Positions 21,267 to 62,468 of a DNA stretch of 64,000 nt are shown one piece after another. This DNA is from Microgenomates group bacterium Gr01-1014_7. Lineage in GTDB: Bacteria; Patescibacteriota; Microgenomatia; Daviesbacterales; UBA10151. The notes beneath the pieces were generated by a model. That model was not told where the DNA came from and did not search any database. It was given only the letters and a program-made list of their open reading frames with translations. The number at the start of each line of letters is the position of its first letter. Within the stretch, counting starts at the first letter, position 1. The stretch spans positions 2,372-66,371 of the forward strand of contig VMGD01000005.1 of the NCBI GenBank assembly GCA_007376405.1, given 5' to 3'. The translations under genes and the position numbers were made by a program.

Positions 21267-21267
21267 C

Positions 21268-35979: not shown

Positions 35980-35996
35980 CAGTCAATTGTATCAGA

Positions 35997-41876: not shown

Positions 41877-42670
41877 TTTAATTTCCTTTTAATTTTCCTT
41901 AGAGACGATAATAATTTTGCCTTTATTAGGTCAATGCCGGATATTTTATTAAAAGGAGCTGGAACTATTTCTGGATGAGGTTTATAAAAAATTTCAGGTA
42001 ACTTATCATTTGGAAAATCTTGACCTAATTCAGATTTATATTTATCATATTTTCTTTTTACGCTGGAGCGTTTTAGGTGCGTAACATGTAAATAAGGCGC
42101 ATCTAAAAAAATAATTTTTTCTCTTTCCTGTACAGGTAAATTATTTTCGTCAAGATAACTTTCTTTGCCATATGGCCAATCAACATGCAAACCGGTTATT
42201 TTTTTATTTATTGCCCTTAGGCTGTAATGTCCAACTCTCCCTAAAAGATTATATTTACCAGCCTTTTCCTCTTGAGAGTGATAAATATCGCCAATAGATA
42301 CAACCATTGGTACAACTATCCCATCAATTTTTTCTCCCTTTTTTTTAATCTCATCTTTTAATAATGTTATAGATTTTTCCCACCATATTTCATCGCCATC
42401 TAAGACTAGTATCCAATCAGCCTGTGAAACATCTAGCATTTCCTGTCTAACCTTAGGAAATTCATTTGTATCAACTTCTCCAACTTGCTTAAGAATTATT
42501 TTATTTACCTTAAGAGCGATTATCTTTTTAATTATTTCAACTGTTTTATCTGTAGATCCAGTGTCATAAATTAAAACTTTATCTACATGATCAATAACGC
42601 TCATTACTGAAAACCAGATAAAATTTTCTTCATTATTAACAATCGTATTTACCCAAATTGTTTTCTTCAT
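41873..42670 (-). CDS. Glycosyltransferase family 2-like
   Basis: ...VLIYDTGSTDKT...WILVLDGDEIW (GT-A DXD). Confidence 0.6.
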   Translation of the reverse strand: MKKTIWVNTIVNNEENFIWFSVMSVIDHVDKVLIYDTGSTDKTVEIIKKIIALKVNKIILKQVGEVDTNEFPKVRQEMLDVSQADWILVLDGDEIWWEKSITLLKDEIKKKGEKIDGIVVPMVVSIGDIYHSQEEKAGKYNLLGRVGHYSLRAINKKITGLHVDWPYGKESYLDENNLPVQEREKIIFLDAPYLHVTHLKRSSVKRKYDKYKSELGQDFPNDKLPEIFYKPHPEIVPAPFNKISGIDLIKAKLLSSLRKIKRKLK

Positions 42671-42682
42671 CTTAAAAACCTT

Positions 42683-45785: not shown

Positions 45786-45786
45786 C

Positions 45787-46485
45787 TTATGGTGATCCCT
45801 TTTTTAAAATAAAAATAACCTCCATACCAAAATGAGAGAAAATTTTTTTATCAAGTTTAAAGCCAGATAAGCTTAGTAATCTCTCAAGCTTATCGTGGTG
45901 AAAAGGATGTAAGTGTGCCCCTTGCCAAACCGTCCCTTTGGTATGTTCCCATATAAACCAAATAATCCTAAATAAAAAACTTCCTGAATCCATTGCTAAA
46001 ATTAATATCCCATCCTTATTTAGAACCCTTCTTAATTCTTGAAATACTGTAAGTGGGTTCTCTACATGCTCAATGGTCTCATAACAGATAATTAAATCAA
46101 AATTATTGGATGGAAATGGCAATTTATCTGCAGGTGCAACAAAAAATTTTATATCAGGATACATACTTTTAGCATATTCTATGGCCTTATCATAAACATC
46201 AACTCCAAAATACTTTCGATGAGGATAAGCTTTAGCAATTTCAGAAATCATATATCCACTAGCACAACCAACATCTAAACAATTTCTAAAATTTAAGTCT
46301 TTGAGTAATTTTTTAGCAATGTTAATTTTGTGTGTATGCCAAATCCATTGAAAAATATTATCTTTAACACCTCTCTGATAATATATTACCGGCACCTGAC
46401 TCCAGGTATTATAAAGTCTATGATTTTTCATATATTTTTTTAAGAAACCAAATAAACGGATACAGAAAATTAAAAATTGTACCAA
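45787..46485 (-). CDS. Class I SAM-dependent methyltransferase
   Basis: Motif I LDVGCASGYM and ...LIICYETIEHV. Confidence 0.7.
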   Translation of the reverse strand: MVQFLIFCIRLFGFLKKYMKNHRLYNTWSQVPVIYYQRGVKDNIFQWIWHTHKINIAKKLLKDLNFRNCLDVGCASGYMISEIAKAYPHRKYFGVDVYDKAIEYAKSMYPDIKFFVAPADKLPFPSNNFDLIICYETIEHVENPLTVFQELRRVLNKDGILILAMDSGSFLFRIIWFIWEHTKGTVWQGAHLHPFHHDKLERLLSLSGFKLDKKIFSHFGMEVIFILKKGSP

Positions 46486-47683
46486 TAAGTACTGTTATAG
46501 AAGCACCAACTATTCCATAATTTGAAATCAGCAAATATCCTAAACCCCCTATTATCAACAAATGCCCAATTGAAATCCAAATAAAAATATCCGGTCTGGC
46601 AAAATAAAAAATAACGCTAATATGTACCGGGACAGAGAATAAAAATACCAGCATGGCGAGAAATAAAAATATAAAAGGTATGACAGCTCCTTGATACCCT
46701 TGCCCGTAAATTATAGGAATGAGATATACCAAAAGAGGAATTGATAAAATCCCCAGTAAACATAAACCCGAAATTAACAACTGAAACTTTTTAAAATATG
46801 TCAGCATCTGATTTAAACTTTGAAAGCCGGCGAACTTTGGCGCAGCCACCAGTCCCAAAGCCGCAACCAGCTGAGGTACAACTTGCGCCAGTTGACTGGC
46901 AGCTCCATAAATGCCCACCTCTCTTGAAGAAAGCAAAGCAGCATTCAAAAAAGTATCCAGTCTGGCCGAGAAAGCGGAAATTATAGTGAATATAGCAACC
47001 GGAATATTATATTGTAAAAGAACTTTCGATAAACTAAATTCATTTCTGCTGGCAAATATTTTTCTGGCCGGAACAATTAACAAAGTTATTGCGAATCCGA
47101 ATAAGGGCAGTATTATATAAACAGCCAGGCTGCTTTCAACATTAAGCGCCAGGAAGTATCCTAAGACCAATATTAAAACCAGTCTTAAGAGGTTGGTTAA
47201 AACATTTACCACACTCCAGAGAAAATATTTTTGATATGCTTGAAGCATTGAGGTAGCAAAGGTAAAAAGAAGTGCCGCTCCTGCTCCAAATGCCACCAGG
47301 CGCAAAGGTAAAATAAGCTCCTCCTTATGAAAAACCTGGGTTGCCAGGAGAGGTGAAAGATAGAAAATTACAAAAAAAGATATCAGCCATGCTATCAATT
47401 TAATTTCCAAACTCAACTTCAAAAATCTGTAAGCTTTTTCGCTGTCTACTGCCAAATTGAGAGAAACAAAACGGACTAAACCCGTATTGGTTCCAATATC
47501 CGCTATATCCGCAATCAGCACAAGGCTAGCAAGGGAAACAGTCAATAACCCAAAATCCGAAGGACCCAAAAACCTTGCCAATACTATATAAAATAAAAAC
47601 CCCAATGCGCCATTTATAACTGTTCCCAAAATGGTAATTTGTGACTGCCTGAATGTGGCTGTTTTTAGTATAGATTTCCACAT
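46418..47683 (-). CDS. Wzx-like oligosaccharide flippase (MOP/polysaccharide biosynthesis protein family)
   Basis: 421 aa with about 12 TM helices; the N-terminus ...ILGTVINGALGFLFYIVLARFLGPSDFGLLTVSLA is typical of the PST family. Confidence 0.7.
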   Translation of the reverse strand: MWKSILKTATFRQSQITILGTVINGALGFLFYIVLARFLGPSDFGLLTVSLASLVLIADIADIGTNTGLVRFVSLNLAVDSEKAYRFLKLSLEIKLIAWLISFFVIFYLSPLLATQVFHKEELILPLRLVAFGAGAALLFTFATSMLQAYQKYFLWSVVNVLTNLLRLVLILVLGYFLALNVESSLAVYIILPLFGFAITLLIVPARKIFASRNEFSLSKVLLQYNIPVAIFTIISAFSARLDTFLNAALLSSREVGIYGAASQLAQVVPQLVAALGLVAAPKFAGFQSLNQMLTYFKKFQLLISGLCLLGILSIPLLVYLIPIIYGQGYQGAVIPFIFLFLAMLVFLFSVPVHISVIFYFARPDIFIWISIGHLLIIGGLGYLLISNYGIVGASITVLIGTIFNFLYPFIWFLKKIYEKS

Positions 47684-47702
47684 ATAGCCATTATAGAAGA
47701 AA

Positions 47703-50360
47703 TTATGGATGTTTGCTGGATCTTATTAGAAGTAAAATCAAACCAACTGCGGTTATCGTAGAAATTAGGAGGCCGGGAAAAACATATTTTTGAGGTTCAA
47801 ATTCAACCGTATACTGCCCATTTTTTTCTATTTTAAATCCATTTAACAGACTATACACTGGTAGGAAAGTTTGACCATTCATTTTCCACAAACCATCATA
47901 ACTTTGGGAAAATACCAAAAATGCAGGTTTTGTTAAACCGCTAATATCAACTATATACTTGGTAGGATTTATTTTGTTATAAGAGACTTTAGGATTATTA
48001 TCGCTTTGGATATTCTTCTCATCAAAATTTACGATCCTTCCCTGCAACTTCTGAGTTTTATCCTGATAACTTACCCATTCAACTTTATCCAAAACCGAAA
48101 GTGCATTAACAACGTTAATATCACCGGAAGATTTAATTTCCAGTTCTCCTCCATCTTTTTGCAACTGTCCAACCTCAAACCACCTAATATTATTTCCAGG
48201 TTTCTTCGTATCAATTTGACCAATCAATTTGCCATCCTGAGAAAAACTTAAATTGCCACTTCTCGTACTTTCCAAAACTCTTGCCAGCAGGACTTTCCCT
48301 TTTGTAAATTGTAAATTGTAAATTGTAAATTCTCTCTCCCCTTCTCCCACTGCCCATCCTCCTCCTAGATCAAAGTCCTGATTATCTATACCGTATTTGA
48401 TTTGTAGAAACTCTCTCCACCTAATCAAATCCGCAGCTTCTCTTTTCCACCAACCGGATTGATCTGGATCCTGTTTTAATTTTTTTGCAGGAAAAATTAA
48501 ATCATTGCTGTCTATAAAACTGGCTGAGAAATCTATAAATGTTTTATTGTTAAGAACAATATTTGCATTTGGTAATTCATCTATTCTTTTCCCAAGTCCG
48601 GAAAACTCTTCAACAAATATTAAAGAATTTTTAGATAAAGCTAATTCACTACTTTTTGTGGCCTCCTTATAGATATCATCTGAACCAATCACCCACCAAA
48701 TATTCTGTGTGATAAAAAATTTGTCCTGATGTTGTTTTACTTTCCATAAAGGAATCAATGAATTTTCAACTTTAGATAGCCAGGATAGTTTAGATAATTG
48801 ATCTGAAAATATAGATTGGTATTTAACATTATCTGGATGTAGATTATCTCTTCTTGGATCAAGATAAGGATAAGCTATATATTCTATTCCAGCCACATCG
48901 AATATTTCACCCATATACTGTGCCTCCCTAAGGAAATTAAATATTTCATATGTACCTAGGGTACCTATTGCAAAAGTTCTTCTTTGAACCAAACGGGCAG
49001 CTTCTATCCTGGGATGCGTCAGGCTCGAATAACCTAAAGAGGGAAAAGACGGAATCCAAAATACTCTACTAAAACTTTTATCTTTTTCTATAAATTGACT
49101 AAGTCCTGCAAACTCTTGTTGAAATAAAGGCTGAGAAAATGTACCAGTCATTTGTCCAAACCAAACTGGCCTTATCAAAAATATAAAATAGCTAGATAGT
49201 ATTATTAAAAAAAATATTTTTAGCTTTGGAAATTTTATTGCCTTCTTAAGAATCTCGTCTGTAGTTATCCCTAATAAAACACTGTACGAAAAGGCTTCTA
49301 GAAAGAAAAATTTTGATGAATCGCGGAATAATGAAAAACCTGGTATGTGCGAAAAAAGCCAAGGATAGATTTGTGGCAAAGGCTCTGAGGCGCCTTTAGT
49401 TAAGAAAATGGAAAATATAGAGACTAATAACCAGAATCCAACAACACGGTCTTTAGGTCGCAGGATGGGTGCAAGAAATACAAGTATAGGAATAAAAACA
49501 AATTCAGGACGAAGAGTTGTGATATTACCAAAGACATTTTTAAACCAGTGGGGGGCAAGTAGCAATATGCTATGACCTAAATCTATAAGGCTTAAAAAAG
49601 AGGCTTGAGTAAAAAAAGCATAAGTACCAGAGGAAATGGGGGCTTTAAATAAAGGTAATAACCAATAAATATTTAATCCTAGCACTACTGTACCGATAAT
49701 TACTCCGCTACTTATCCAGTCCAAAAACAAAGAGACCCTTTTTTTAGGATCCAATAATAATTGGTAAAAAAACAGTACTAAGCTAAGGAGAAATAAAACA
49801 TAAATAAATCTAAAATCAAAAAAACCTAAAATTGAGACTGATAAACCTGCAAAGACTTTTTTATTAAATCCTCCCTTAATAGATTTTTCTACTGCCAGGA
49901 AGGCTATTGGAAACCAGGCATAGGTAAGTGCTATTGATAATTGTCCACCATCAATAACTAAGAGAATATAGGTCGTCGTTAAATAAAATAAAGATGCAAT
50001 AAATTTAGCATCATCAGTTAGCTTAACACTTCCACAAAATTTCCAAATACCTATCCCTCCCAAAAGTAAAAACGGTATAAAAAGAAGCACTCTTTCTATA
50101 ATAGAAAAACCTAAACCAATATTTGCGAGAATACCTGCTATAAATGACAATGGCCAAGACCAAAGAAAGAATGTCGAATACTCCCCCAGTCCCTCAGCCC
50201 CACTCTCTGACCAAACGAAAGGCAAATTCATAGAAGATTTAAGTAAAGATTCTGAAATTATTGGAAAATCATTAGCAACCCTTGCCCCTGGTAAAAACCA
50301 CTGCCAATAAACTGTAACCAGTAAAAGCAGTAGAATTATTACCAGAAATTTATTTTTCAT
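47703..50360 (-). CDS. Large polytopic membrane protein (885 aa): N-terminal multi-TM GT-C-like domain, large extracytoplasmic domain, C-terminal TM anchor
   Basis: Its architecture parallels the two giant paralogs downstream, and it contains the heptanucleotide repeat at 48312-48339. Confidence 0.5.
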   Translation of the reverse strand: MKNKFLVIILLLLLVTVYWQWFLPGARVANDFPIISESLLKSSMNLPFVWSESGAEGLGEYSTFFLWSWPLSFIAGILANIGLGFSIIERVLLFIPFLLLGGIGIWKFCGSVKLTDDAKFIASLFYLTTTYILLVIDGGQLSIALTYAWFPIAFLAVEKSIKGGFNKKVFAGLSVSILGFFDFRFIYVLFLLSLVLFFYQLLLDPKKRVSLFLDWISSGVIIGTVVLGLNIYWLLPLFKAPISSGTYAFFTQASFLSLIDLGHSILLLAPHWFKNVFGNITTLRPEFVFIPILVFLAPILRPKDRVVGFWLLVSIFSIFLTKGASEPLPQIYPWLFSHIPGFSLFRDSSKFFFLEAFSYSVLLGITTDEILKKAIKFPKLKIFFLIILSSYFIFLIRPVWFGQMTGTFSQPLFQQEFAGLSQFIEKDKSFSRVFWIPSFPSLGYSSLTHPRIEAARLVQRRTFAIGTLGTYEIFNFLREAQYMGEIFDVAGIEYIAYPYLDPRRDNLHPDNVKYQSIFSDQLSKLSWLSKVENSLIPLWKVKQHQDKFFITQNIWWVIGSDDIYKEATKSSELALSKNSLIFVEEFSGLGKRIDELPNANIVLNNKTFIDFSASFIDSNDLIFPAKKLKQDPDQSGWWKREAADLIRWREFLQIKYGIDNQDFDLGGGWAVGEGEREFTIYNLQFTKGKVLLARVLESTRSGNLSFSQDGKLIGQIDTKKPGNNIRWFEVGQLQKDGGELEIKSSGDINVVNALSVLDKVEWVSYQDKTQKLQGRIVNFDEKNIQSDNNPKVSYNKINPTKYIVDISGLTKPAFLVFSQSYDGLWKMNGQTFLPVYSLLNGFKIEKNGQYTVEFEPQKYVFPGLLISTITAVGLILLLIRSSKHP
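48312..48339. repeat. Perfect heptanucleotide tandem repeat (TTGTAAA)x4 inside the 885-aa coding sequence
   Basis: ttgtaaattgtaaattgtaaattgtaaa, read directly; encodes EFTIYNLQFTK on the minus strand. The 7-bp unit is not a multiple of 3. Confidence 0.85.
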
Positions 50361-50523
50361 TTTTTAGCTCAAATATATAGAGTAACGATCCTCCTACTAT
50401 AATCCAAAATGATAAAACAATAAGTCTTAATGCAAAACCTGAATGGTTTAAAAAAGCAGCTAAGCCGCTTAACAAAATAAAAAACAATCCTACTAAAAAT
50501 GTATGTTTACTCAAAATTCTCAT
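50350..50523 (-). CDS. Unannotated small two-TM ORF (57 aa) whose stop overlaps the start of the 885-aa gene
   Basis: Manual translation gives MRILSKHTFLVGLFFILLSGLAAFLNHSGFALRLIVLSFWIIVGGSLLYIFELKNEK. No clear SD is present. It resembles the small partners of the giant genes only weakly. Confidence 0.3.
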   Translation of the reverse strand: MRILSKHTFLVGLFFILLSGLAAFLNHSGFALRLIVLSFWIIVGGSLLYIFELKNEK

Positions 50524-50562
50524 TTAAAAGATTATATTACATTTTGATATATAATTTAGTGT

Positions 50563-52047
50563 ATGCTAAAGAAAATATTTCCATTCCTCATTATATTTAC
50601 AGTTATCCTTTTTCTATATTACCCAGCTCTATTTACTTATTTTTCTCAGGATGATTTTTTTCACTTTAAAGTAAGTTTAACTGACGGAAGCATCAGGAAA
50701 TTTGTTAATCTATTTGGTTTCTACTCTTTTTCCGACAGAGGAATTGCTTTTTATAGACCAATTTTCAGGGAGGCTCTTTTTAATACTTTTTATTCGCTAT
50801 TTGGATTAAATGCTTACCCTTTTAGAATTTTTCAATTTCTAATTCTATTCTTAAATTCAATTCTTGCTTATCATTTAATTCAGAAAATTTTTAAAAATAA
50901 ATTTCTTTCTTTTTTTGTGGCTTTCTTTTATGCTATTTGTTCTGCCCAAGTTTCCCCTCTTTATTATCTGGCAGGGGGAATACAAGTATTAGGCGCAACT
51001 ACTTTTTTGCTTCTCACTTTAATCTTTATCCTTAAGAATTCAATTCTTTCCTATATTACATTTCTTTTGGCTCTAGGTTCTCATGAACTAGCTTCTATAA
51101 TACCCTTTCTAATTTCAGCATTACTTTTTATTCAATATCCTTTTAAAAAATTCCTAAGAAAAATTTGGATAGCTTGCCCTTTCTTTTTTATCTTACTGGT
51201 TTATTTATATTTAGAAATTACTAAGATAGGTTTTTCTGCAACAGAAAAAGAATACCAGGCAATATTTAGCCTAAAAACTATTCTTAATTCCTATATGTGG
51301 TATGCAGGCTGGGCTCTAGGATTACCCGAAATGTTAATAGATTTTGTGTTACCTGGATTTAAACTTAATCCAACGCTTCTTAGATATTGGGGGAATTATT
51401 ACATGATTATTTTCTCAACTTTTTTGACAATTTTTTTTCTACTAACAGCAGCTATTATCTACTTATCAATCAAAAAAAGAAATTTCTTTACAAAGCAGCT
51501 TTTGTTTTTCATTTCCTGGTTCCTATTAAGCCTACTTCCCATTATCTTACTTCCACTTCATAAATCAACTCAGTACCTGGAAACAGGCCTAGTCGCCTTC
51601 TGGACTATAATAGGACTAATTATTTTAAATGTACACCAGGCATCCAAACTACAGCTCGTCAGGTGGGAACGTAAAGTTGTTAGCATTTTCTTGTTTATTT
51701 TAATATCATCCCTTTTTATCCTATCTGCAACATCAGCAATCTTACAAAGAACTACTTATTGGGCAGCTGAAAGAGGAAGATATGCAGAAAAGCTGATAAA
51801 ACAAGTTACTACCACTTATCCTATTTTGCCAAAAGGATCTGTAATATACATTGAAAATGACCCGAACTATCCATTTGTTGCAACTGAGTGGGGATCCAGT
51901 TCCAAACAAGCAGCTTTTATTTTAAATAATGCGGATGCATTAAGACTTGTTTATAAAGATTCGACAATAACAGTTTATTACGAAGATCTGGAAAAACCTG
52001 ACCTTTCGGAAAACAACATTTATTTTGTGGTGGCTAGAATCTATTAA
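50563..52047 (+). CDS. GT-C-type integral-membrane glycosyltransferase-like protein; one of the few plus-strand genes
   Basis: 494 aa, polytopic, first loop ...FTYFSQDDFFHFKV (DD motif), with a C-terminal soluble domain. Confidence 0.5.
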   Translation: MLKKIFPFLIIFTVILFLYYPALFTYFSQDDFFHFKVSLTDGSIRKFVNLFGFYSFSDRGIAFYRPIFREALFNTFYSLFGLNAYPFRIFQFLILFLNSILAYHLIQKIFKNKFLSFFVAFFYAICSAQVSPLYYLAGGIQVLGATTFLLLTLIFILKNSILSYITFLLALGSHELASIIPFLISALLFIQYPFKKFLRKIWIACPFFFILLVYLYLEITKIGFSATEKEYQAIFSLKTILNSYMWYAGWALGLPEMLIDFVLPGFKLNPTLLRYWGNYYMIIFSTFLTIFFLLTAAIIYLSIKKRNFFTKQLLFFISWFLLSLLPIILLPLHKSTQYLETGLVAFWTIIGLIILNVHQASKLQLVRWERKVVSIFLFILISSLFILSATSAILQRTTYWAAERGRYAEKLIKQVTTTYPILPKGSVIYIENDPNYPFVATEWGSSSKQAAFILNNADALRLVYKDSTITVYYEDLEKPDLSENNIYFVVARIY

Positions 52048-52385
52048 AATTTTTCTACAAAACCTTCTTTAATAATCTGTGGAATATATGAGGATATAAC
52101 AATCAGTAATAAAGCAAATCCAAAGCTTCCAATGATATTTGCCAGATTTAATTCATTGAGTAAATATAGAAATATCATAAGGAAAAGTATAGATAAAGAC
52201 AGAGATAAAAATAATTTTCTTAGTTTGGAAACGAAAAAAATAATTAAAGTTACAAGCGTTAATACTATTGGATAGATAAATTGATCAGGTCTATTCCATT
52301 CAAAACCATATTCTAAAAAATTAAAAAAACTCATTAAGATAAGCGGTAGTATTAAAAATTTAATCAATAATCTCATGACTTTCAT
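52044..52385 (-). CDS. Small polytopic membrane protein (113 aa), partner of the 1137-aa protein and paralog of 55782..56105
   Basis: The C-terminus LNELNLANIIGSFGFALLLIVISSYIPQIIKEG aligns with LDFIDIANFFGSLGFGILIISSLFYLPKLLKYG of the other small protein. Confidence 0.5.
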   Translation of the reverse strand: MKVMRLLIKFLILPLILMSFFNFLEYGFEWNRPDQFIYPIVLTLVTLIIFFVSKLRKLFLSLSLSILFLMIFLYLLNELNLANIIGSFGFALLLIVISSYIPQIIKEGFVEKF

Positions 52386-55300
52386 AAGTTTTTCTTAATT
52401 TTTGATCTTACAATCAATAAAATAACTCCCAACAAACCAGCTAAGCCTAGGTAAATTCCTAAAGTCACTTTCTGTTGAGGTTTAAATTCTATTTTAAAAT
52501 TATACTCTCCCGGTTCTTCAACCCACCAGGCATTACCATAAAGATAACCTATATAATGTTGATACGGCTTAAAAACTTTATTATCTCTTCTCAATTCTAA
52601 TTCCCATCCTGGATCATAGGCTTCTTTAAAGAAGACAAATCCTGGACGTGTCAATCTCAAATTTCCTTCATATTCTACGGCATTTTTTCTTTTAAAATCT
52701 ATCGTTCCAACTATTTTTTTTTCATTATTTAATTCCACGGCTCTTAAGAGAATTTGATTATTAAGTATTCTAATTAATCGTAAATTTTTAATCTCTACCG
52801 ATGTAGTATTAAAATTGGATACCTCGGGGGGGATTAAAGCAATTAATCTAATCTTGGCTTCTCTGGTCGATATTGAAAGAGCCGGTAATTTGATGTTATA
52901 GCTTCCCTGCCAATCAAATTGATTGAGATGTTGCAAGAAACTTATTCTCGGAACCTTTTGACCATTCTGCTCATTATCAGTATCTTGAATTATCTGAATA
53001 TATAGCCCAACATTTGCTGGTATTATCGCATCAAAACTTAACTTAAAGATATCTTCGCCACTTGTTTGAAGTAGCGGACCCCCAATTGCTGAAGGGTTAT
53101 TTTTAGAAACCGACATCTCAATTGTCTCCTTGAGAATATTAATATTTCCAATTTTTGTTAAACTGTTTGGAGAAGAGATTAAATTAGCTGCGGAAGGAGT
53201 ACTCAAACTTATTTCATTTAATCCTTTTTTAAAGCCAATTTCCCCAAAAGTTAAAATATTCCCAACCTCTTTACCTGATAAGGTAACGGCTTCATTGTTA
53301 ATCTGCAAATTAAGTTTACTTAACTTGTCCAAATAAGCATCTTTTATCTTAGAATTTGTTAAAATTAATTCATACCTACCATCAGAATTTATTGAGAAAT
53401 TATAAAGTTGTCTTTCGCCTGCTTCACTAACATTACCCTTATACACGAAGAGAGGAAACGTTTTTTCTTTAATTAGGAACTCTCTTATTCTATTTAAAGT
53501 ATCGGGTCCCTTTCCTATAACCGATAAAGTAATCTCATGAAGTTTTAATATATCTCCTATGGTGGTCTTAGCTACATCAAAGTATAATGTTGAATTATCA
53601 TCCAATTCTGGAAAAATTTTATCTATCAAATTTGAGTATTCATCAATTGAGGCTTCTCTGATAGTCCCCTCTATTAACTTTTGACTGGCTAAAATGATAT
53701 TTTGCACTGTTGCTTCGGTTTTTGTATGCATTGTTCCCAGTTGTTTGACGTATTGTGCTGCTCCTAATAAAATATTCAATTGAGTAGTGAGCTGCTTTGT
53801 TGTATTTTCTAAACTGCTTGATGAAGCTTGCGGATAGGAAAAAGCATTTTCAGGAAAAATTAGAGTTTCAGAAGCTTTAGATTTTAAAGTTTCATCCACT
53901 CTATCATTAACTGGTGAAAGAAAATTAGCATCTTTCTCACTTGCTAGCCATGGCCAAAGTTGCATACTACTTTTTTGAGGATAGACCAAAGAAATATTAT
54001 TTGGAATCTCGATTTTAGATCCAAAAAATTCCTCAGCTACTTTATACACCACTAAATTACCAAATTCAGCTTCTTTTTTTATAAAACTCAAATTGTTCAG
54101 GACTTTTTCAGCCTCAAACGGATTATATGTATCACCCCCCAACCAATCCATATCTTTATGAAGAATTATAAACCTAACATTAAAATCCTGGAGTAATTTT
54201 AGGATTTTACTGGTGTCTTCATAATATGGTTTATGAAAAATTAGTGATAAAGCTGTTAAAGGATCATCTATCCTCTTAAGATTAACTCCGTGAGAAATTG
54301 AAGGTAAGGCGGTAAAGAGGGAAGCAGATGACTCAATACCATGATAACCATTTTTCCATCTATATGTTGCTACATCACTTCTTGTTAGTGGTAAATGAAG
54401 AATCTTACCATCAGTTATAGAGTCTTGATTGACTTTTTGGTTTAACCATAAATTTGCATCTAAATAAGTTTGGGGGATCTCAACATAATTTGGTTTCCCT
54501 ACAATTCCAAAAATTGTCCCCTTGTACATGGGCCAATAATAGACTCCCATAACTGTAATTAGCATCAATAAAACCATCTTTTTGCCTAAATTACCTAAAT
54601 ATTTACCGAACCAGCTAAAAAGTCCTTCTATTCCCAAGACAAATAATATGCTACTTACAAGGGGTAAAAGAATACCTAATTTTTCAAATGGATTTCGGAG
54701 TAACCCCAAGGCAAAAAATTTACTAAAAAGCAATAAAAAAGGCTGACCAAAAGGGGTTGACGTACCTTTTGCTAACATAATTATGACCAAATAAATCAAT
54801 ACCAGCGAAGCAAGATACTTTCTTTTAAGTGCACAAATTATGCCATAAAATATTATGCTTACCCCTAACCAAGGAATCAGGCGGAAGAAAAAACTCTTAT
54901 ATATTTCTCCTAGTTCTGCTTGATCAAAGACATAATAAGAATTAACCATCTGCAGGCTATAAGGGAGGATTGCCTGTTTGCTGATAGCTACCAGTGTAAA
55001 TATACTCCCCCTGATATCGTGTTGCTGTGAAGCTACACCTGAGCCAATTGTAGCAACTGGCATTAGCCACCAGCTATTAACTAGAATCCAAATAACTAAC
55101 CCAAATAAAGATCTCCAAAGTACTTTTAAAGAGCGGGATTTATTTTCCCAGGGTAGGAATATTTCAGAAACGGTAAAAAGAGACATTATTAACCAAAATG
55201 GAAATACAAAAGCAATTGTTCCAAACATATAGCTTGCTAAAAGGTTTACAAGTAGAAAATATAGCAAGTATAAGTAATTACCACTTTTTATCCAAAGCCT

Positions 55301-55795
55301 CCAAAAAAGAATTAAAAATGGTAAAGCTGCTACAAAAAACATTGATGTATGAGTGAAACGGTGCCAGATTTGAGTCATCATATATGGGTTAAACATATAA
55401 AATAATCCTGCTAAAGTGGCGTATATTTTTTTATCTCTACCTATAATTGAAAGGGTTAACAAATACATTCCAAATCCCATAAAGAAAAGTAGGGTACAGA
55501 ATAAAATCGCTTGAATACCTAGAGGCCCTAGACCAAGGAGTTGAAAGAAGGAAAGGAAGAAGTATAAGGTAATTGATGTAATTGCCTGAGGAATTAGGAA
55601 TCCGGGTGCTACAGCTTCCCACCAGATATATCTGGCTATTTGAAATATCCTGATGGGGTTATATGTTGGTAAGCCTACATCTCCCCCACCATAGAGGTGG
55701 CCATCTTTAAACCATGCAAATATTAATAATAAAGATAAGATCAGAAAAAATAAGGCTGGAAGATAGTATTTATTAACCTTTTTATATATAACCAT
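52382..55795 (-). CDS. Giant polytopic membrane protein (1137 aa): N-terminal GT-C-like multi-TM domain of about 430 aa, an extracytoplasmic domain of about 650 aa, and a C-terminal TM anchor. Possibly AftD/DUF3367-like arabinofuranosyltransferase family
   Basis: N-terminus ...AWFKDGHLYGGGDVGLPTYNPIRIFQIARYIWWEAVAPGF...; clear paralog of 56089..59583. The family assignment is tentative. Confidence 0.55.
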   Translation of the reverse strand: MVIYKKVNKYYLPALFFLILSLLLIFAWFKDGHLYGGGDVGLPTYNPIRIFQIARYIWWEAVAPGFLIPQAITSITLYFFLSFFQLLGLGPLGIQAILFCTLLFFMGFGMYLLTLSIIGRDKKIYATLAGLFYMFNPYMMTQIWHRFTHTSMFFVAALPFLILFWRLWIKSGNYLYLLYFLLVNLLASYMFGTIAFVFPFWLIMSLFTVSEIFLPWENKSRSLKVLWRSLFGLVIWILVNSWWLMPVATIGSGVASQQHDIRGSIFTLVAISKQAILPYSLQMVNSYYVFDQAELGEIYKSFFFRLIPWLGVSIIFYGIICALKRKYLASLVLIYLVIIMLAKGTSTPFGQPFLLLFSKFFALGLLRNPFEKLGILLPLVSSILFVLGIEGLFSWFGKYLGNLGKKMVLLMLITVMGVYYWPMYKGTIFGIVGKPNYVEIPQTYLDANLWLNQKVNQDSITDGKILHLPLTRSDVATYRWKNGYHGIESSASLFTALPSISHGVNLKRIDDPLTALSLIFHKPYYEDTSKILKLLQDFNVRFIILHKDMDWLGGDTYNPFEAEKVLNNLSFIKKEAEFGNLVVYKVAEEFFGSKIEIPNNISLVYPQKSSMQLWPWLASEKDANFLSPVNDRVDETLKSKASETLIFPENAFSYPQASSSSLENTTKQLTTQLNILLGAAQYVKQLGTMHTKTEATVQNIILASQKLIEGTIREASIDEYSNLIDKIFPELDDNSTLYFDVAKTTIGDILKLHEITLSVIGKGPDTLNRIREFLIKEKTFPLFVYKGNVSEAGERQLYNFSINSDGRYELILTNSKIKDAYLDKLSKLNLQINNEAVTLSGKEVGNILTFGEIGFKKGLNEISLSTPSAANLISSPNSLTKIGNINILKETIEMSVSKNNPSAIGGPLLQTSGEDIFKLSFDAIIPANVGLYIQIIQDTDNEQNGQKVPRISFLQHLNQFDWQGSYNIKLPALSISTREAKIRLIALIPPEVSNFNTTSVEIKNLRLIRILNNQILLRAVELNNEKKIVGTIDFKRKNAVEYEGNLRLTRPGFVFFKEAYDPGWELELRRDNKVFKPYQHYIGYLYGNAWWVEEPGEYNFKIEFKPQQKVTLGIYLGLAGLLGVILLIVRSKIKKNL

Positions 55796-56105
55796 ATTTT
55801 AAAAGTTTTGGCAGATAAAATAAACTTGAGATGATTAATATGCCAAATCCCAAACTACCAAAAAAATTTGCAATATCAATAAAGTCTAAAATGAAAAAAA
55901 CAACCATAATAAAAAATAATATCATTGACAAGACAACGAAAGCTTTTTTTAACCATGGTTGGGATATTAAAAGCAGTGTCATCAATGTAAAAAATAAAGT
56001 TTGAAATAGAGAAACCCACGAATCAAATTTAAAACCGGAGTTTATTATCAAGAAAAATCCAAAGACAAACAAATATAAAGTTATTTTCTTAATTGCTTTT
56101 TTCAT
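55782..56105 (-). CDS. Small polytopic membrane protein (107 aa), partner of the 1164-aa protein
   Basis: Four hydrophobic segments; paralogous to 52044..52385. Confidence 0.5.
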   Translation of the reverse strand: MKKAIKKITLYLFVFGFFLIINSGFKFDSWVSLFQTLFFTLMTLLLISQPWLKKAFVVLSMILFFIMVVFFILDFIDIANFFGSLGFGILIISSLFYLPKLLKYGYI

Positions 56106-59100
56106 GGCTCCATTTTAAATATTTGCCAACTAAATGAACTATTGTAAAAATTAATAAACTGAATACGCTAATGTATATACCTAAATATAAATACTTATCC
56201 CCTGAAAATCTAATTCTAAATTTATAGTTTCCTTTTTTATCTATAAACCATCCATTACCATACATATTAGCAAAGAAGTGTTTTGGTACCATATACTCTT
56301 TTTCACCGTCAAACAAGGTTAACTTCCAGTTATCGTTAAACGTTTCGCTGAAAATCATGTAGCTTGGCTTATCCAAAACTATATTCCCTTCATATTCCAA
56401 TGGAGCCTTTTTAGTGTAATTCAAACTTACAATTTGAGATGTCTGATTTGCAGAAATGCTCCTAAGGAATAACAGGTTATCTAAAATTCTAAATACCCGA
56501 ATATTACGGATAGATATGCTCGAAGTCTTTTGAAAATTAAATTTCACTTCCTGTTTATCACATAGCCATTTCTCTGCTATGATAGATTTACAATCATCCC
56601 AAGGGATTGATACAACTTGGAATGAAAAATTGGCGGAATTTTTTCTGGGAGATATATAAAGGTTATAAGTTTTCCAATATTTATTGTAAGGATCGAACTC
56701 TACTGGTTTTATAAATTGATAAGATCTCTGCTTAATTAATGCATCAGCCACTAAATAATCATCTGGATCACTATCTTGCAGTATCCTTACAATTGGGTCA
56801 CTTCCTTTCTGTGTCCAATATTCAAAAGATAGTAAGTAGGTGCTGTTGGGATGGAAAGGCTCTACCTTTATCTCGTACGAATTTGGATTGTGTTGTCCAG
56901 AGACTATCCGTATCTCTCCTTGCTTATCTTTGATTAAATTTACAGAATTTTGCATATTAAAACTAATCTCATGCAGACCTTCATTTAAAGGTATTGTCCC
57001 ATAAGATATTAGATCATCCTTTATTTGACCAGTTCTTGACTGAACTGTTTTGTCTACTTGTAAATCTAATTGACTTAAATTTTTTTGATAAATTGGAGAT
57101 ACCTTTGAATCTGCCATCAATATCTCATATTCTCCGTCGACTGGTATAAAAAACCTATGTACTTGCCTATTGTATCTGGCCAGTTCTCTTTCACTTATCA
57201 ATTCGTAAATTGGTTGCATTTTCATATCGATCATTCTCATTCTTAAAGTTTCTATTGCTTGACTTAATACCGCTTTATCTTGATCTTTTGCTCTTTGATA
57301 AATTTGTCTCAAAACTACTTCATGACGGGAAAATAATATTTTAAATTCAGTAGGTGCTTCAACACTAATTAATCCATCTTTAAAGATTTTATCGACCGCT
57401 TTATTTAGATGTTGTATATATCTTTGAATTATTGGAGATACTGATTTATTTGGATCTTTATCCTGCATCCTATATATCTCTACTAACCTCTTTCCTGCAA
57501 ATGTGAGATGAATATTTTCTTTTGTTTTTTGATACCCACTAGCCTGAATAAACTCCTTTAAAATTATCATTGGATATAGTGGTAAATCAGGCAAAAATCT
57601 AGCTGGTGGTAACTCCTTTAAGGAATTCTCTTCTGATGCTAATTGTGTTGAAGAGATTTTCACAATAGTGGTGGGGATCAAAATTGTTTGTTTATAACCA
57701 GATAAATTTGTAAGCTCGTTACTATCTGATTTATCAGACAGTAGTATTCTAGTTGGATCGCTTCTTAAAAACCAGAACCAAGTGTCATAATTTGAACCAA
57801 GTTTTAGATAATTAAAGTAAGAAGCGGTGTAGATTTTACTTAAAAAGCTTTTTTCATCCATTTCATATACAGTTACTTCCTCAATCTCTTTTTGTTTTTT
57901 TAAAAAAGGCAGCGAGTCTAAAATTTTCCCTATTTCTTCAGGCGATTGAACCCCTGAAGCTTGCCAGTTAATATCGTAATGAAGAACGATAAATCGGACA
58001 TTAAAAGCTCTGAATAGTTCCTTCAAATATTCAGCATATTTTATCTGATCAAAGCTAGTCATCAGATCAAACCCCTGCAATGCATCGTCCAAATAAGATA
58101 AATTAAAACCCATGGATATTGAAGGATTTGATGTAAAAAAACCAGCATTTGACTCTGCTCCAGAATAACCATATTGCCACCTATAGGTAGAGGCATCAGT
58201 AATAGCTAAAGGTAAATGTAAAATATTACCGTCTTTTTTTTGATTCTTAATCCAAAGATTCGCTTGCTGGTAATAGGGAGGAATCTCTACAAAATTCCTT
58301 TTCTCCAAGGTCCCAAACAGTGTCCCTGTCCAAAAAGGCCAATGATAAACTCCAAAAAATAATCCAAAACTTAAAATTAAAACTGCCTTGCCTGCTAAAT
58401 TATTCCTCTTCCAAAAATAAGTAGCAAGATTAAAAAAGCCGACTGAAAAAAGTACACTACCTGCAAAAGGAATTAATAATCCGAATTTTTCAAATGGATT
58501 TCTTAATACTCCCAAAAAAAAGAATTTTTCAAACATATAAGGATAAAAATAGCCTAACGGAGGGGCAACTCCTTTTGCTAAAAAGACTGCTAAAATAAAA
58601 AGTATGCTCCAAAAAATCAATTCTCTACTCTTTTTCGTATAATAAATACCGATTATGGTAAACGAAACCCCTATCCAGGGAATAAATAAAAAAAGCGGAT
58701 GCTTAAAAACTTCCCCTAATTCTTGTCTTTGGAATAAATAAAAGGAATTTAACCCGGGAAGTGAATATGGGATAATACTTTGCTCACCAATTGCAAACAA
58801 GGTCGAAAGAGTATCACCTACTGCATGTTGAGCAGAAGCCAAAGTAGGCAAAATAAAAAACGCTGGAAGAATCCACCAGGTATTGGTTAATACCCAAAGT
58901 ATCAACCCTAAACTGAAGGATGCCGAAATTTGAGAAGCTTTTTTCCATCCAATCCATGGAATGAATATTTCAAAGAGGGTGTACATACCAAGAAGAAACC
59001 ATAAGGTAATAGCGTAAGCCAATGTGCCGAACATATAGGAAAAAATTAAATTGACTGCTATAAATATGATTAAACTTGTAAATTCTTTCTCTCTCATCCA

Positions 59101-59583
59101 TTTTCTCCAAAAGAGTAAAAGTAATGGCAAAGAAGCTACAAAGAAAAATGTGGTGTGGGTGAATCTATGCCAGACCAAAACCATCATATAGGGATTGACC
59201 ATATAAAAAAGGCCTGCAAGTATTGCCATCCCCCTATTTTCATTCTTCATAATATTTTTAGCCAGCAAATACATTCCAAAACCCATTAGAAATAGCAAAA
59301 TACCAAAGATTACTGCTTGGATCATAAAAGCAGGAAGACCCAAGTTTTGAAGAAATGCAAAAAAAACATAAGCAGGCAGAGCAGTCAAATTTTGAGGTCT
59401 AGGAAAACCCGGCGCGGTTTCAGTCCACCATGGCTGCGATGCCATCTGAAGTACTCTTTGGGGATTATGTGTCGGTAAACCTACATCTCCTCCGCCATAC
59501 ATCAACCCATAATGAAACCATGAAAACATCACGACTAGAGTGATAAACAGGTAAAGAGAACCAGCTAGTATATTTCTCTTCAT
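56089..59583 (-). CDS. Giant polytopic membrane protein (1164 aa), tandem paralog of 52382..55795
   Basis: N-terminus ...SWFHYGLMYGGGDVGLPTHNPQRVLQMASQPWWTETAPGF... is colinear with the 1137-aa protein and has the same domain architecture. Confidence 0.55.
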   Translation of the reverse strand: MKRNILAGSLYLFITLVVMFSWFHYGLMYGGGDVGLPTHNPQRVLQMASQPWWTETAPGFPRPQNLTALPAYVFFAFLQNLGLPAFMIQAVIFGILLFLMGFGMYLLAKNIMKNENRGMAILAGLFYMVNPYMMVLVWHRFTHTTFFFVASLPLLLLFWRKWMREKEFTSLIIFIAVNLIFSYMFGTLAYAITLWFLLGMYTLFEIFIPWIGWKKASQISASFSLGLILWVLTNTWWILPAFFILPTLASAQHAVGDTLSTLFAIGEQSIIPYSLPGLNSFYLFQRQELGEVFKHPLFLFIPWIGVSFTIIGIYYTKKSRELIFWSILFILAVFLAKGVAPPLGYFYPYMFEKFFFLGVLRNPFEKFGLLIPFAGSVLFSVGFFNLATYFWKRNNLAGKAVLILSFGLFFGVYHWPFWTGTLFGTLEKRNFVEIPPYYQQANLWIKNQKKDGNILHLPLAITDASTYRWQYGYSGAESNAGFFTSNPSISMGFNLSYLDDALQGFDLMTSFDQIKYAEYLKELFRAFNVRFIVLHYDINWQASGVQSPEEIGKILDSLPFLKKQKEIEEVTVYEMDEKSFLSKIYTASYFNYLKLGSNYDTWFWFLRSDPTRILLSDKSDSNELTNLSGYKQTILIPTTIVKISSTQLASEENSLKELPPARFLPDLPLYPMIILKEFIQASGYQKTKENIHLTFAGKRLVEIYRMQDKDPNKSVSPIIQRYIQHLNKAVDKIFKDGLISVEAPTEFKILFSRHEVVLRQIYQRAKDQDKAVLSQAIETLRMRMIDMKMQPIYELISERELARYNRQVHRFFIPVDGEYEILMADSKVSPIYQKNLSQLDLQVDKTVQSRTGQIKDDLISYGTIPLNEGLHEISFNMQNSVNLIKDKQGEIRIVSGQHNPNSYEIKVEPFHPNSTYLLSFEYWTQKGSDPIVRILQDSDPDDYLVADALIKQRSYQFIKPVEFDPYNKYWKTYNLYISPRKNSANFSFQVVSIPWDDCKSIIAEKWLCDKQEVKFNFQKTSSISIRNIRVFRILDNLLFLRSISANQTSQIVSLNYTKKAPLEYEGNIVLDKPSYMIFSETFNDNWKLTLFDGEKEYMVPKHFFANMYGNGWFIDKKGNYKFRIRFSGDKYLYLGIYISVFSLLIFTIVHLVGKYLKWSHEKSN

Positions 59584-60620
59584 TTTGCCCTCACAAAGGA
59601 CAGGAAACTTTTAAACAAAGGCGTATTTGACAGCAAGTTTAACATACTTTCTTCTCCCTTTTGATTTATATCCCCTCTTATAGTAAATCTTTTCCTAAGT
59701 AAACTGGGAAGATTCCTTAATATCCAAATTATAGCTGTGAATCTTGTAAACCCCAGACTAAATTTCCTCTTTATAAGAATTTCCCATAGGCCGGCTGCAA
59801 TATACAATAGGATTGTTATAGGTAAAGCTTTAAGCAAAAGAAAAACTGGATAATTTTTAATCATAGTTGCAAGTCTATTCTTGTTAAAATGCCATCTCAC
59901 CTTAACTCTGACTATGTTAGACAAATCTGTTTTTCCCCTCTTGTGATAAATTACTGCATCTGGCTGATATAAAACCTTTAAACCTTTTAGTCTTATCCTT
60001 AAAGCAAAATCCATATCTTCATACCCAATACCGAAATCTGGATCAAAGTCTCCCACAATATTTACAACACTTCGGCGTATGGCTGATGCAGATCCGCTAG
60101 CAGAAAGAATCTTTGTTTGTCGGTCATACTGACCCAAATCTTTCTCCCCTGCCCCAATTGTTATTGGATTACCATATATATCCATGGTTTCTCCAGCGCT
60201 ATCTATCATTTTATGATCATAAAAATATAATAATTTTCCTTGTATCAAAGCTGCTTTTGGCTCCTTTTGAAAAAGATTAATAATCTTTTGTAAATATCCG
60301 GACTTAAATTCAATATCATTATTAAAAAAAGCTATATATTCTCCAGTGGCATTTTCCAAACCAAGATTAAGACCCTGGCTGTACATATTGATAGGATTGC
60401 GAATTATTTTAAGCCTTCGATTCTTACCAAACTTTCGCTTTATAATTTGTACACTTCTGTCCATCGAAGCGTTATCCACCAAAAAAACCTCATAATTTGG
60501 GTAGTCACAATTTAAAACTGAAGTTAATGAGTCAATCACCAAATTAAGCTGCAAACCATTGTAGTTAGAGATAATGATAGACACTTTAGGCCACTTCCCA
60601 ACCCATAAACTTTTTCTCAT
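59580..60620 (-). CDS. Glycosyltransferase family 2 with C-terminal TM segments
   Basis: VSIIISNYNGLQLNLVIDSL...VFLVDNASMDRS...FFNNDIEF (GT-A) plus C-terminal hydrophobic helices. Confidence 0.75.
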   Translation of the reverse strand: MRKSLWVGKWPKVSIIISNYNGLQLNLVIDSLTSVLNCDYPNYEVFLVDNASMDRSVQIIKRKFGKNRRLKIIRNPINMYSQGLNLGLENATGEYIAFFNNDIEFKSGYLQKIINLFQKEPKAALIQGKLLYFYDHKMIDSAGETMDIYGNPITIGAGEKDLGQYDRQTKILSASGSASAIRRSVVNIVGDFDPDFGIGYEDMDFALRIRLKGLKVLYQPDAVIYHKRGKTDLSNIVRVKVRWHFNKNRLATMIKNYPVFLLLKALPITILLYIAAGLWEILIKRKFSLGFTRFTAIIWILRNLPSLLRKRFTIRGDINQKGEESMLNLLSNTPLFKSFLSFVRAK

Positions 60621-61276
60621 TTTATATTTTTAATACACAAAATTCCAGCTGCAATCTTGGGAATGAAGTAGACAATTGGCGACAATAAAAAGGATACTGC
60701 AAAATAGAATGAAATTAATACTCTGTTGTGATTAATACGAATTAAACCTGCTTCCGACCAAAGTGGAGAAAATCCTATCCCAAACACTTTATAACCCCTT
60801 TTCCTAAAATCTTCTTCTGACCATCCTGATTTATGAACCTGATGAGGATTGTCTCCAAGATAACCATGGGGCTGCTTCATAAATTCTCGTGGTGTACCTA
60901 TTATAACTCTTTGCCTGGCTATTGACTCTATTAAAGACAGTAACTCTTCTCCCCTCTTATAATCTAAATGCTCGATTACTTGTGAGCAGAAAACTACATC
61001 ATATTTCTTTCTTTTTATAATTTCTTGCTTGACAAATTTTACTATATCCGCTTTATAAACTTTTGTAAAAGTACTTCTTTTTGATGCAATTTTGACATTT
61101 TTTGCATATAGATCTACTCCTGTAACCTGCCATTCTTTCCCATCCGCCAAAAGTTCCATTAGATTGCCGTCACCACACCCGAGATCTAAAATAGTCTTTG
61201 GGTTACCTAAACTCTGCCTTAGTAACCACATATATGAGAATGGTATGGTAACTATTAATCTATTGATGAATTTCAT
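60617..61276 (-). CDS. Class I SAM-dependent methyltransferase
   Basis: Motif I ILDLGCGDGNLMELL and ...VVFCSQVIEHL. Confidence 0.7.
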   Translation of the reverse strand: MKFINRLIVTIPFSYMWLLRQSLGNPKTILDLGCGDGNLMELLADGKEWQVTGVDLYAKNVKIASKRSTFTKVYKADIVKFVKQEIIKRKKYDVVFCSQVIEHLDYKRGEELLSLIESIARQRVIIGTPREFMKQPHGYLGDNPHQVHKSGWSEEDFRKRGYKVFGIGFSPLWSEAGLIRINHNRVLISFYFAVSFLLSPIVYFIPKIAAGILCIKNIK

Positions 61277-62468
61277 TGAAAATTTCTTCTGCTCGTTTAT
61301 CCCAAGACCAATTCTTTTTTAGCATGTCCAATCCTTCTGCACCTATCCTATCTCTCATTAATTGGTCATTTAATAAACTTATAACCACATTGGCAAATTT
61401 TTCTAAATTACCAATATCTACTTTAATCATTCCTTTAGGATAATACGATTTGTAAGAATCTAGGTCAAATCCGATGCAAGGTAATCCAAAAGCCATAGCT
61501 TCGCCAGCTGCCATACCCCCTGAATCATAAAATGAAGGGTGTAGTACAATTTTACTTTGGGAAAAAATCTTATACTTATCTCCCCCATCAAATAGATAAC
61601 CCTTAACAATAATGTTCTTTTCTAATTTTAAATTTTTAATTTTTATTTTTAGATTTTTCATTAACGGACCGTCTCCTATCATAATCAATCTGGCATCGCT
61701 CTTTTGATCTACCACATATCTCCATATATCAATGAGCTCTATAACACCTTTCTGTGGGTGAAAGCGGCCTTGAAAAACAGCATCATAAATTTTAGGCAAT
61801 TTTTTAAATTTAACTTTCCATTTTCTAATTTGTTCTAAATCTACAGCACCATAGACAATGATTACTCGTCCCATTTTATTTAGTCTTGGAAAATTTAGCC
61901 TCTCATTTTCATTATTAACTAAAACAAAATCTGCAAATTTGTTAATCAAGTTTCTAGTAGGCAATTGGATAAACCAGTAAACAAGGGCGCTTAATTTATA
62001 AGTATTATCTCTTTTCCCCTCGGTAAAACCTACCCAAGGTTTGGGAGCTGTTTGATACCATGCTGCTACCCACTTTATTTTGGGAAATCGTAACTTTAAA
62101 ATCCATGCCGGAATTGAATCCATCCAAAATTCTGATGCTGAGTAAACTATCGTTTTGGGTTGATTGTCCAAACTCACAGTCAACCCAACTCTAATTCCTT
62201 CAAGAATCCTTGCTAAGTAATTTATCAAAAAACCAAAATTTCTCCATGGTTTCATACTTGATACAAGATAGTTGACACCTGATAGACTTAACTGCTGTCT
62301 TTTACATAATTCGTATCCTTCTTGAGAAACCCAAATACTAACCTTAGCACGTTTATTCCAACGTCGGGCAAATTCTATAAAGATTCGGTCACTTCCTGAC
62401 AACCCCTGACCATAAGCAGCTAAGGCAAAGATGTGTATTTTTTTAATTCCCATACTTTTATATGACAA
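61260..62468 (-). CDS. Glycosyltransferase family 4
   Basis: C-terminal ...HPSFYDSGGMAAGEAMAFGLPCIGFD. Confidence 0.75.
   Translation of the reverse strand: MSYKSMGIKKIHIFALAAYGQGLSGSDRIFIEFARRWNKRAKVSIWVSQEGYELCKRQQLSLSGVNYLVSSMKPWRNFGFLINYLARILEGIRVGLTVSLDNQPKTIVYSASEFWMDSIPAWILKLRFPKIKWVAAWYQTAPKPWVGFTEGKRDNTYKLSALVYWFIQLPTRNLINKFADFVLVNNENERLNFPRLNKMGRVIIVYGAVDLEQIRKWKVKFKKLPKIYDAVFQGRFHPQKGVIELIDIWRYVVDQKSDARLIMIGDGPLMKNLKIKIKNLKLEKNIIVKGYLFDGGDKYKIFSQSKIVLHPSFYDSGGMAAGEAMAFGLPCIGFDLDSYKSYYPKGMIKVDIGNLEKFANVVISLLNDQLMRDRIGAEGLDMLKKNWSWDKRAEEIFNEIHQ

Follow-up and report, generated by a model that had tools for sequence, protein, structure and literature searches.

Giant AftD-like membrane proteins paired with small four-helix partners in a Microgenomates bacterium: a possible split form of AftD

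AftD, an essential cell-wall enzyme of mycobacteria, is a GT-C glycosyltransferase whose chain re-enters the membrane after its soluble domains via a single transmembrane (TM) helix, TM12 (bioRxiv 10.1101/2019.12.22.885152). TM12 is followed by an 18-residue loop and by a C-terminal four-helix bundle, TM13-16, which packs against TM8 and TM9; no other Aft or Emb enzyme has it, nor does any other GT-C enzyme whose structure is known (bioRxiv 10.1101/2019.12.22.885152). The bundle binds the phosphopantetheine arm of acyl carrier protein (ACP), gates an active-site loop and is essential in mycobacteria: a stop codon at T1285 removes it, and the truncated gene does not complement an aftD depletion mutant (bioRxiv 10.1101/2019.12.22.885152). 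Residues F1324 to R1389 lie within the bundle, and R1389 contacts the acidic ACP on the cytoplasmic side (bioRxiv 10.1101/2019.12.22.885152). Because R1389 lies within the bundle after T1285, the bundle spans at least about 105 residues; it can be deduced from the published description that TM13 starts and TM16 ends on the cytoplasmic side. Here, we describe a stretch of 64,000 nt from Microgenomates group bacterium Gr01-1014_7 (contig VMGD01000005.1, positions 2,372 to 66,371; the whole stretch is called the window) that encodes two very large membrane proteins, giants A and B, each followed by a small four-TM protein, partners A and B, and that may carry a naturally split form of AftD twice in tandem.

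In database searches, giants A and B proved identical to two proteins of Microgenomates group bacterium Gr01-1014_7, "Uncharacterized protein G01um10147_459" and G01um10147_457, respectively. The source genome was recovered from a groundwater metagenome and belongs to the candidate phyla radiation (CPR), Microgenomates/Daviesbacteria. An earlier note on this DNA had taken the giants, of 1164 and 1137 aa, for paralogs of one architecture, each followed by a homologous 107- or 113-aa membrane protein whose start overlaps the stop of the giant, and all of this was borne out. Pairwise alignment of the giants runs end to end at 35% identity (E=0) and includes a shared N-terminal YGGGDVGLPT(H/Y)NP motif; the partners match each other along their entire length at 31% identity (E 1e-11). 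Hydropathy analysis of the giants gives 10-11 N-terminal TM segments, a soluble region of ~700 aa and a single C-terminal TM helix, and hydropathy taken together with an AlphaFold2 (AF2) model puts the multi-TM N-terminal domain at ~420 aa, ahead of the large soluble region and the single C-terminal TM helix. The start of partner A overlaps the stop of giant A by 17 nt and has a GGAG upstream, and the start of partner B overlaps the stop of giant B by 4 nt (ATGA). These overlapping stop and start codons support coupling between each giant and its partner.

The link between the giants and AftD, a resemblance that the earlier note had also proposed, comes from Pfam and fold comparison, since sequence searches of all PDB chains with giant A alone and with a 22-sequence giant profile did not reach AftD. 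Giant A matches PF11847 (GT-C_AftD, formerly DUF3367) at 34.6 bits over residues 38-567, above the gathering score of 26 bits. The same search was positive for giant A only: giant B scores 14.2 bits, below the threshold, and the distant 885-aa paralog encoded nearby has no match, so that membership by gathering score holds for giant A only. A precomputed PF11847 match is present on many database orthologs of the giants. An AF2 model of giant A from the 22-sequence alignment (predicted local distance difference test score, pLDDT, 79; predicted template modelling score 0.70) shows an N-terminal GT-C core, a soluble GT-C domain, a helical insert, beta-sandwiches resembling carbohydrate-binding modules (CBMs) and one C-terminal TM helix; the helical insert has a DUF5667 match that is just sub-threshold (25.6 vs 27 bits). 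When this model is compared with solved structures by Foldseek, three AftD entries rank first with whole-chain alignments (E 1.6e-17 to 1.6e-16), and STT3 and PglB lie far behind at about 1e-6 and weaker. AftD is thus the closest solved structure to this GT-C fold, and the soluble region has the CBM-like beta-sandwiches of that family. A near-invariant YGGGDxG motif, with its aspartate at D33, is found in the first outside loop, some 10 residues past TM1, and GT-C enzymes including AftD (K39/D41) carry a catalytic acidic residue in this region. H139/R140, H253, K337, R361 and E365/K366 are also invariant in the giants; these and D33 are at most candidate counterparts of the essential acidic and basic residues around the active site of AftD (K39, D41, E251, K361, D474). 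The giants are very likely AftD-like GT-C enzymes.

At the C-terminus the giants part from AftD, which carries TM12 and the TM13-16 bundle on one polypeptide. Exactly one C-terminal TM helix was found in 111 of 120 database giants and more than one in none; the remaining nine have no C-terminal TM helix at the hydropathy threshold. The chain of the giants ends 1-23 residues (median 8) after this helix, and a separate four-helix protein is encoded directly downstream, hence the term split variant. The AF2 model of partner A consists of four helices (pLDDT 91). Basic residues at the N-terminus, in the TM2-TM3 loop and in the C-terminal tail of the partners predict an N-in/C-in topology by the positive-inside rule. 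The tail of the giant and the N-terminal segment of the partner add up to ~17-18 residues in the sequence, compared with the 18 residues of the TM12-TM13 loop of AftD. The conserved basic tail of the partner, YLPxLIKKG(Y/F)(I/V)EK, lies on the predicted cytoplasmic side; it is suggestive only that it parallels the contact between R1389 and ACP.

The earlier note had left the coupling of giant and small protein unassigned to any described system; the AftD TM13-16 bundle would be a specific candidate, by an architectural parallel only (size, helix count, topology and gene position). Under this interpretation, the region would code for a pair of paralogous enzymes, each made of two subunits. On the outer face of the membrane, each giant would transfer sugar from a polyprenyl-phosphate-linked donor to a cell-surface glycan and so lengthen or branch it, as family membership and the surrounding glycan genes suggest, and its CBM-like beta-sandwich domains would hold the polymer. 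The C-terminal TM helix of the giant would be the counterpart of TM12, with the giant ending just after it, and the next gene, translationally coupled, would supply a ~110-aa four-helix bundle that docks on the TM core of the giant and plays the part of TM13-16. Quite probably, the partner is an obligate, stoichiometric membrane subunit. That the giants and partners form a naturally split AftD, with the bundle as a translationally coupled separate subunit, is a proposition for which we see even chances, and that the partner corresponds to TM13-16 in both structure and function is put forward tentatively, as slightly short of an even bet.

The coupling of giant and partner, which the earlier note had called conserved, holds well beyond the window. 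Co-occurrence was assessed in 24 loci fetched through the giants and scanned with hidden Markov models (HMMs); after duplicates were collapsed, they gave 36 assessable giants from 20 related genomes. A partner-family open reading frame (ORF) starts between -55 and +9 nt of the giant stop for 29 of these, and three have a divergent multi-TM ORF of 104-117 aa in the partner position. In the first 24 loci and the window, all 35 matches to the partner HMM lie immediately after a giant. Because these loci had been chosen through the giants, a reverse test was run with the small protein as the query of a single-sequence metagenome scan; it retrieved five metagenome loci, in which 6/6 partner ORFs directly follow the C-terminus of a giant. 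The order GT2, giant 1, partner, giant 2, partner, mini-protein, 885-class protein and Wzx is common to two loci (L002 and L003), and tandem giant-partner pairs occur in most other loci too. Across 24 giant-partner pairs, the identity matrices of the two proteins correlate (Pearson 0.71), and a correlation as high was reached in 0/2000 Mantel permutations. Nearest neighbours mostly keep their position class: position-1 giants group with position-1 giants and position-1 partners with position-1 partners, and the same holds at position 2. Giant B follows this pattern, its nearest relatives being position-2 giants of other genomes; partner B of the window is an exception, as its nearest partners are not position-2. 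Among close orthologs, paired through identical length of the longest contig, conservation of partner A equals or exceeds that of giant A (for example 86% vs 79%, 83% vs 71% and 87% vs 73%). The correlated matrices and preserved position classes indicate that duplication of the pair as one unit preceded the divergence of the species, early in Daviesbacteria, and that both genes have since changed in parallel.

A database search with giant A returns 227 homologs, the named ones being Daviesbacteria, Microgenomates or Patescibacteria, and many of the homolog contigs carry two giants. One protein source names a homolog as from Nanoarchaeota, a taxonomic label that looks wrong. The records of loci L005, L009, L011-L013, L015, L017, L019, L020, L023 and L024 are titled 'uncultured Gammaproteobacteria bacterium' despite a Daviesbacteria-type cluster, and these labels look wrong as well. 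In several genomes, shorter AftD-like proteins (483-712 aa; giant HMM E 1e-27 to 1e-84) are encoded upstream of the giant pair, at a distance of a few kb; the window, with its end at 64000, contains no counterpart of them. Giants of a third class (998-1161 aa) are followed by another kind of multi-TM ORF, 104-117 aa long and bearing an I-Y-W-W/L motif. Homology of these ORFs to the main partner family is not detectable (hhalign probability 2.4%); their position and size are conserved without sequence similarity to the partner.

The partners form a narrow family of their own. Partner A has 38 close homologs at 41-100% identity, and a profile query extends the family to 93 homologs of 88-113 aa, nearly all of 104-113 aa, with the conserved motifs ANxFGSxGFG and YLPxLIKxG(Y/F)(I/V)EK; none of the listed homologs has a precomputed Pfam domain or an informative name. 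An HMM scan of 1.84 billion representative proteins finds only 95 clusters of the family at 50% identity, 59-139 aa long. No description of the family was found in the literature searched, and it has no Pfam, NCBIfam or source annotation; it and the family of two-TM mini-proteins described below are both unannotated and could be candidates for family databases as markers of the system. The small ORFs are short and hydrophobic and lie in DNA of ~32% GC, as chance or non-functional frames in AT-rich DNA might. However, the 93 homologs with conserved motifs and 95 clusters, the position and reading-frame overlap conserved in about 20 genomes and the confident four-helix model leave a chance origin with next to no probability, and by sequence conservation it is refuted.

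Another explanation takes the partner for a dedicated flippase of the lipid-linked sugar donor, an analogue of GtrA, GtcA or ArnE/ArnF in three-component systems, which are widespread (PMC11127046). Its size and four-TM layout do resemble those of GtrA and SMR-type flippases, and a GT2 enzyme lies directly upstream of giant A, its stop overlapping the start of the giant by 4 nt; GT2, alone or fused to a methyltransferase, is also directly upstream of giant 1 in L001, L002 and L003. A second GT2 enzyme of the window, about 11 kb away from the module, resembles polyprenyl-phosphate sugar synthases, its best PDB sequence matches being ArnC, the archaeal Dol-P-Man synthase and GtrB (E 6e-13 to 5e-12). 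Because of these matches, supply of a lipid-linked donor is plausible from its sequence, and this enzyme is a candidate supplier of the GT-C enzymes around it. The GT2 enzyme adjoining giant A, however, matches only generic GT2 enzymes in the PDB, and no specifically synthase-like signal was seen in that comparison. The window partners have no Pfam or NCBIfam match at E up to 1, with the GtrA (PF04138) and SMR (ArnE/F) families included, and the fold search with the partner gave no transporter-specific match. Moreover, a Wzx-type flippase is already present among the glycan genes, and each giant has its own partner that diverges as fast as the giant does (31% vs 35% between paralogs), a pattern expected for a co-evolving interface rather than for a shared donor flippase. 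By any test run, the partner is not a GtrA- or SMR-type flippase, and a dedicated flippase is improbable. It is highly doubtful, too, that the partners, instead of being a passive subunit or a remnant of the AftD bundle, are a new family of dedicated lipid-linked-donor channels or flippases that hand a polyprenyl-phosphate sugar directly to the cognate giant, whereby each gene pair would be a self-contained flip-and-transfer machine and the mini-protein with the 885-aa protein a reduced version of it.

A closer competitor keeps the partner as an obligate accessory subunit but makes it an independent invention, unrelated to TM13-16, that binds elsewhere on the giant and stabilises or regulates it, much like the small subunits of eukaryotic oligosaccharyltransferase (OST) or the predicted small partners of mycobacterial GT-C enzymes. 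All of the evidence for coupling and co-evolution fits this explanation equally well. According to a 2026 preprint, most GT-C enzymes of mycobacteria have partners, and these are often small proteins (10.64898/2026.07.15.738315); an accessory subunit would agree with the emerging picture of GT-C enzymes as generally acting together with protein partners, many of them small membrane proteins. The third giant class, with its non-homologous multi-TM ORF, suggests that partners are replaceable. The partner also shows no detectable homology to AftD: neither a sequence link nor a fold-search link between the two was found. An independent subunit would nevertheless leave as coincidence that the giants lack the very bundle that distinguishes AftD and that the partner matches this bundle in helix number, approximate size, predicted topology and gene position, and we regard it as unlikely, if far from negligible.

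Several further results weigh, with the missing link to AftD, against a split AftD. A partner profile of 62 sequences searched against all PDB sequences gave only a non-significant match to KCP2 (E 1.9). No full-length giant-partner fusion, the intermediate between split and fused forms, was found in the 1.84 billion representative proteins, where no partner-profile match exceeds 139 aa. Finally, no four-TM partner accompanies five giants (the second ones in L001, L017 and L019, the one in L023 and the partial one in L022), and the subunit is therefore dispensable, or shared, in some lineages. The mini-protein directly follows the second giant in L017 and L019, replacing the four-TM partner there. 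Comparison of the N-terminal and C-terminal halves of the partner by hhalign detected no internal duplication. On the side of the coupling, one protein of the representative library, P0281 (135 aa), joins the last ~75 residues of a giant (the end of the beta-sandwich and the anchor) in frame with TM3-TM4 of the partner, in a consistent topology; no contig was traced for it, and it may be a natural fusion or deletion, or an artefact of assembly or gene calling.

If the split is real, a natural two-piece form would offer a direct way to test what the AftD bundle does. AftD-type enzymology would also extend beyond the Actinobacteria into the CPR, whose cell envelope has hardly been characterised. 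No relevant work on AftD-like enzymes in CPR or Daviesbacteria turned up in literature searches.

The 885-aa protein is a third, distant paralog with a GT-C core, a shorter soluble region and one C-terminal TM helix. The earlier note had seen in it the same overall architecture, and a two-TM ORF overlapping its start; both observations stand. It matches the giant HMM (E 1.6e-23), and BLASTP aligns 478 aa of it with the giants at 23% identity (E 4e-10), as well as the C-terminal beta-sandwich and anchor (E 7e-6). Orthologs of 879-901 aa occupy the same position in other loci, and the Wzx-type flippase is kept at the position after the 885-class gene in L002 and L003. Residues 292-373 have a weak NCBIfam match to the MmpA trehalose-lipid delivery family (29 bits vs a cutoff of 210) that probably reflects only a shared membrane segment. 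The 57-aa mini-protein has a stop that overlaps the start of the 885-aa protein by 11 nt, and in 7/7 fully resolved loci a two-TM ORF of 53-62 aa lies directly upstream of the 885-class gene, either overlapping its start or within 30 bp of it (the latter in L024). The mini-protein family has an invariant glycine, usually within a (N/G/D)-H-x-G-F motif. Compared by hhalign, it matches the TM3-TM4 half of the partner weakly (probability 24-45%, best E 2e-4) and the N-terminal half not at all; the mini-protein may thus be, as judged from sequence, a half-size relative of the TM3-TM4 half.

The module sits in a surface-glycan island that follows a division and cell-wall cluster (Table 1). GC content across the window is 31-42%, its genes lie almost without exception on the minus strand, and neither a tRNA nor any Rfam RNA was detected anywhere in it. 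Isoleucyl-tRNA synthetase, a class II tRNA synthetase and RecO are also encoded on the minus strand within the first 23 kb. The island holds a DUF4012 protein, a Bac_transf priming transferase, a Wzy_C protein, a hexapeptide acyltransferase, a Wzx-type flippase, nine GT4 (group 1) and five GT2 glycosyltransferases and four methyltransferases. In addition to the three AftD-like proteins, it encodes seven other GT-C-like polytopic membrane proteins, 5/7 of them above the Pfam PMT_2 threshold. This composition suggests that here a CPR bacterium assembles glycan on a large scale outside its membrane. Enzymes dependent on a lipid donor are unusually many in the island. The 494-aa protein between partner B and the mini-protein has no Pfam match and is probably a further GT-C-like enzyme that is as yet uncharacterised. 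In L023, the equivalent opposite-strand position (9360..10859, minus) is taken by a homolog whose N-terminus is nearly identical, and a YFSQDDFF motif after TM1 is conserved in the 494-499-aa proteins of these two genomes.

Table 1. Features of the window and of related loci (L numbers); positions are those of the window or of the locus named.
Feature	Position	Strand	Remarks
Division/cell-wall cluster	1..23000 (first ~23 kb)	minus	two FtsW/RodA, third SEDS gene, FtsZ, FtsA, MurG, MraY
Further genes of this cluster	1..23000	minus	two Mur ligases, MurA, class B penicillin-binding protein, MraW
Surface-glycan island	23932..62468		~38 kb; extends at least to about 62.5 kb
Other GT-C-like polytopic proteins	29771..31267, 35997..37397, 37372..38811, 42683..44197, 44160..45785, 50563..52047; Wzy_C 31221..32657		
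GT2 glycosyltransferase resembling polyprenyl-phosphate sugar synthases	40477..41187	minus	236 aa; PDB sequence matches
Wzx-type (Polysacc_synt) flippase	46418..47683	minus	Pfam PF01943, 77.8 bits; directly downstream of the 885-aa paralog
Distant third giant paralog	47703..50360	minus	885 aa
Mini-protein	50350..50523	minus	57 aa, two TM; N-H-S-G-F-A turn motif
Polytopic membrane protein	50563..52047	plus	494 aa; about 11 predicted TMs
Partner B	52044..52385	minus	113 aa, four TM; paralog of partner A
Giant B	52382..55795	minus	1137 aa; paralog of giant A, same architecture
Partner A	55782..56105	minus	107 aa, four TM
Giant A	56089..59583	minus	1164 aa; AftD-like GT-C glycosyltransferase
GT2 glycosyltransferase	59580..60620	minus	346 aa, C-terminal TM; Pfam Glycos_transf_2, 96.6 bits
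Mini-proteins in relatives	L002 17609..17773; L003 13706..13867; L017 12950..13117; L019 13316..13489; L021 3486..3653; L023 10888..11076; L024 3516..3686		
ORFs downstream of third-class giants	L020 5661..6014; L021 3146..3460; L024 3170..3508		
Shorter AftD-like proteins	L003 1..23; L005 247..1938; L012 21..1679; L013 27..1697; L016 53..1504; L018 46..1704		

Measured against described systems, an AftD-type GT-C enzyme in a glycan island is known; new are the split architecture, if confirmed as such, the four-helix partner that co-evolves with the giant, the duplication of the pair in tandem and the occurrence in this phylum. The locus resembles the three-component systems (GtrA/GtrB/GtrC; CsbB/GtcA/YfhO; ArnC/ArnE-F/ArnT; PPPRS/MATE/GT136, Kelly et al. 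2024) in combining a GT-C enzyme, GT2 enzymes and a small polytopic protein in a surface-glycan locus, whereas its partner matches neither GtrA nor SMR and is paired 1:1, coupled and co-diverging with each GT-C protein. With the small subunits of GT-C enzymes, such as Ost4 and KCP2 of OST and the predicted partners of mycobacterial Pmt, MptB, AftB and AftC, it would share a small membrane protein stably bound to the catalytic subunit; here, however, this is a bacterial operon-encoded four-TM protein without homology to them, from a family limited to those 95 clusters. Mycobacterial AftD (Rv0236c / MAB AftD; PF11847; PDB 6W98, 6WBX and 6WBY) is the best full-length structural match of the giants, with which it shares the GT-C fold, TM core, soluble GT-C domain, CBM-like beta-sandwiches, single-helix re-entry, first-loop acidic residue and very large size. 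The two differ in that identity is 10-13%, that AftD occurs in Actinobacteria and the giants in CPR (Daviesbacteria), and that no family of the decaprenyl-phospho-arabinose pathway was matched among the window ORFs >200 aa scanned against Pfam. Unlike AftD, the giants carry the helical insert in their soluble region, and their chain stops after the putative TM12 equivalent, the place of the ACP-binding bundle apparently being taken by a separate four-TM gene downstream in a pair that is duplicated in tandem.

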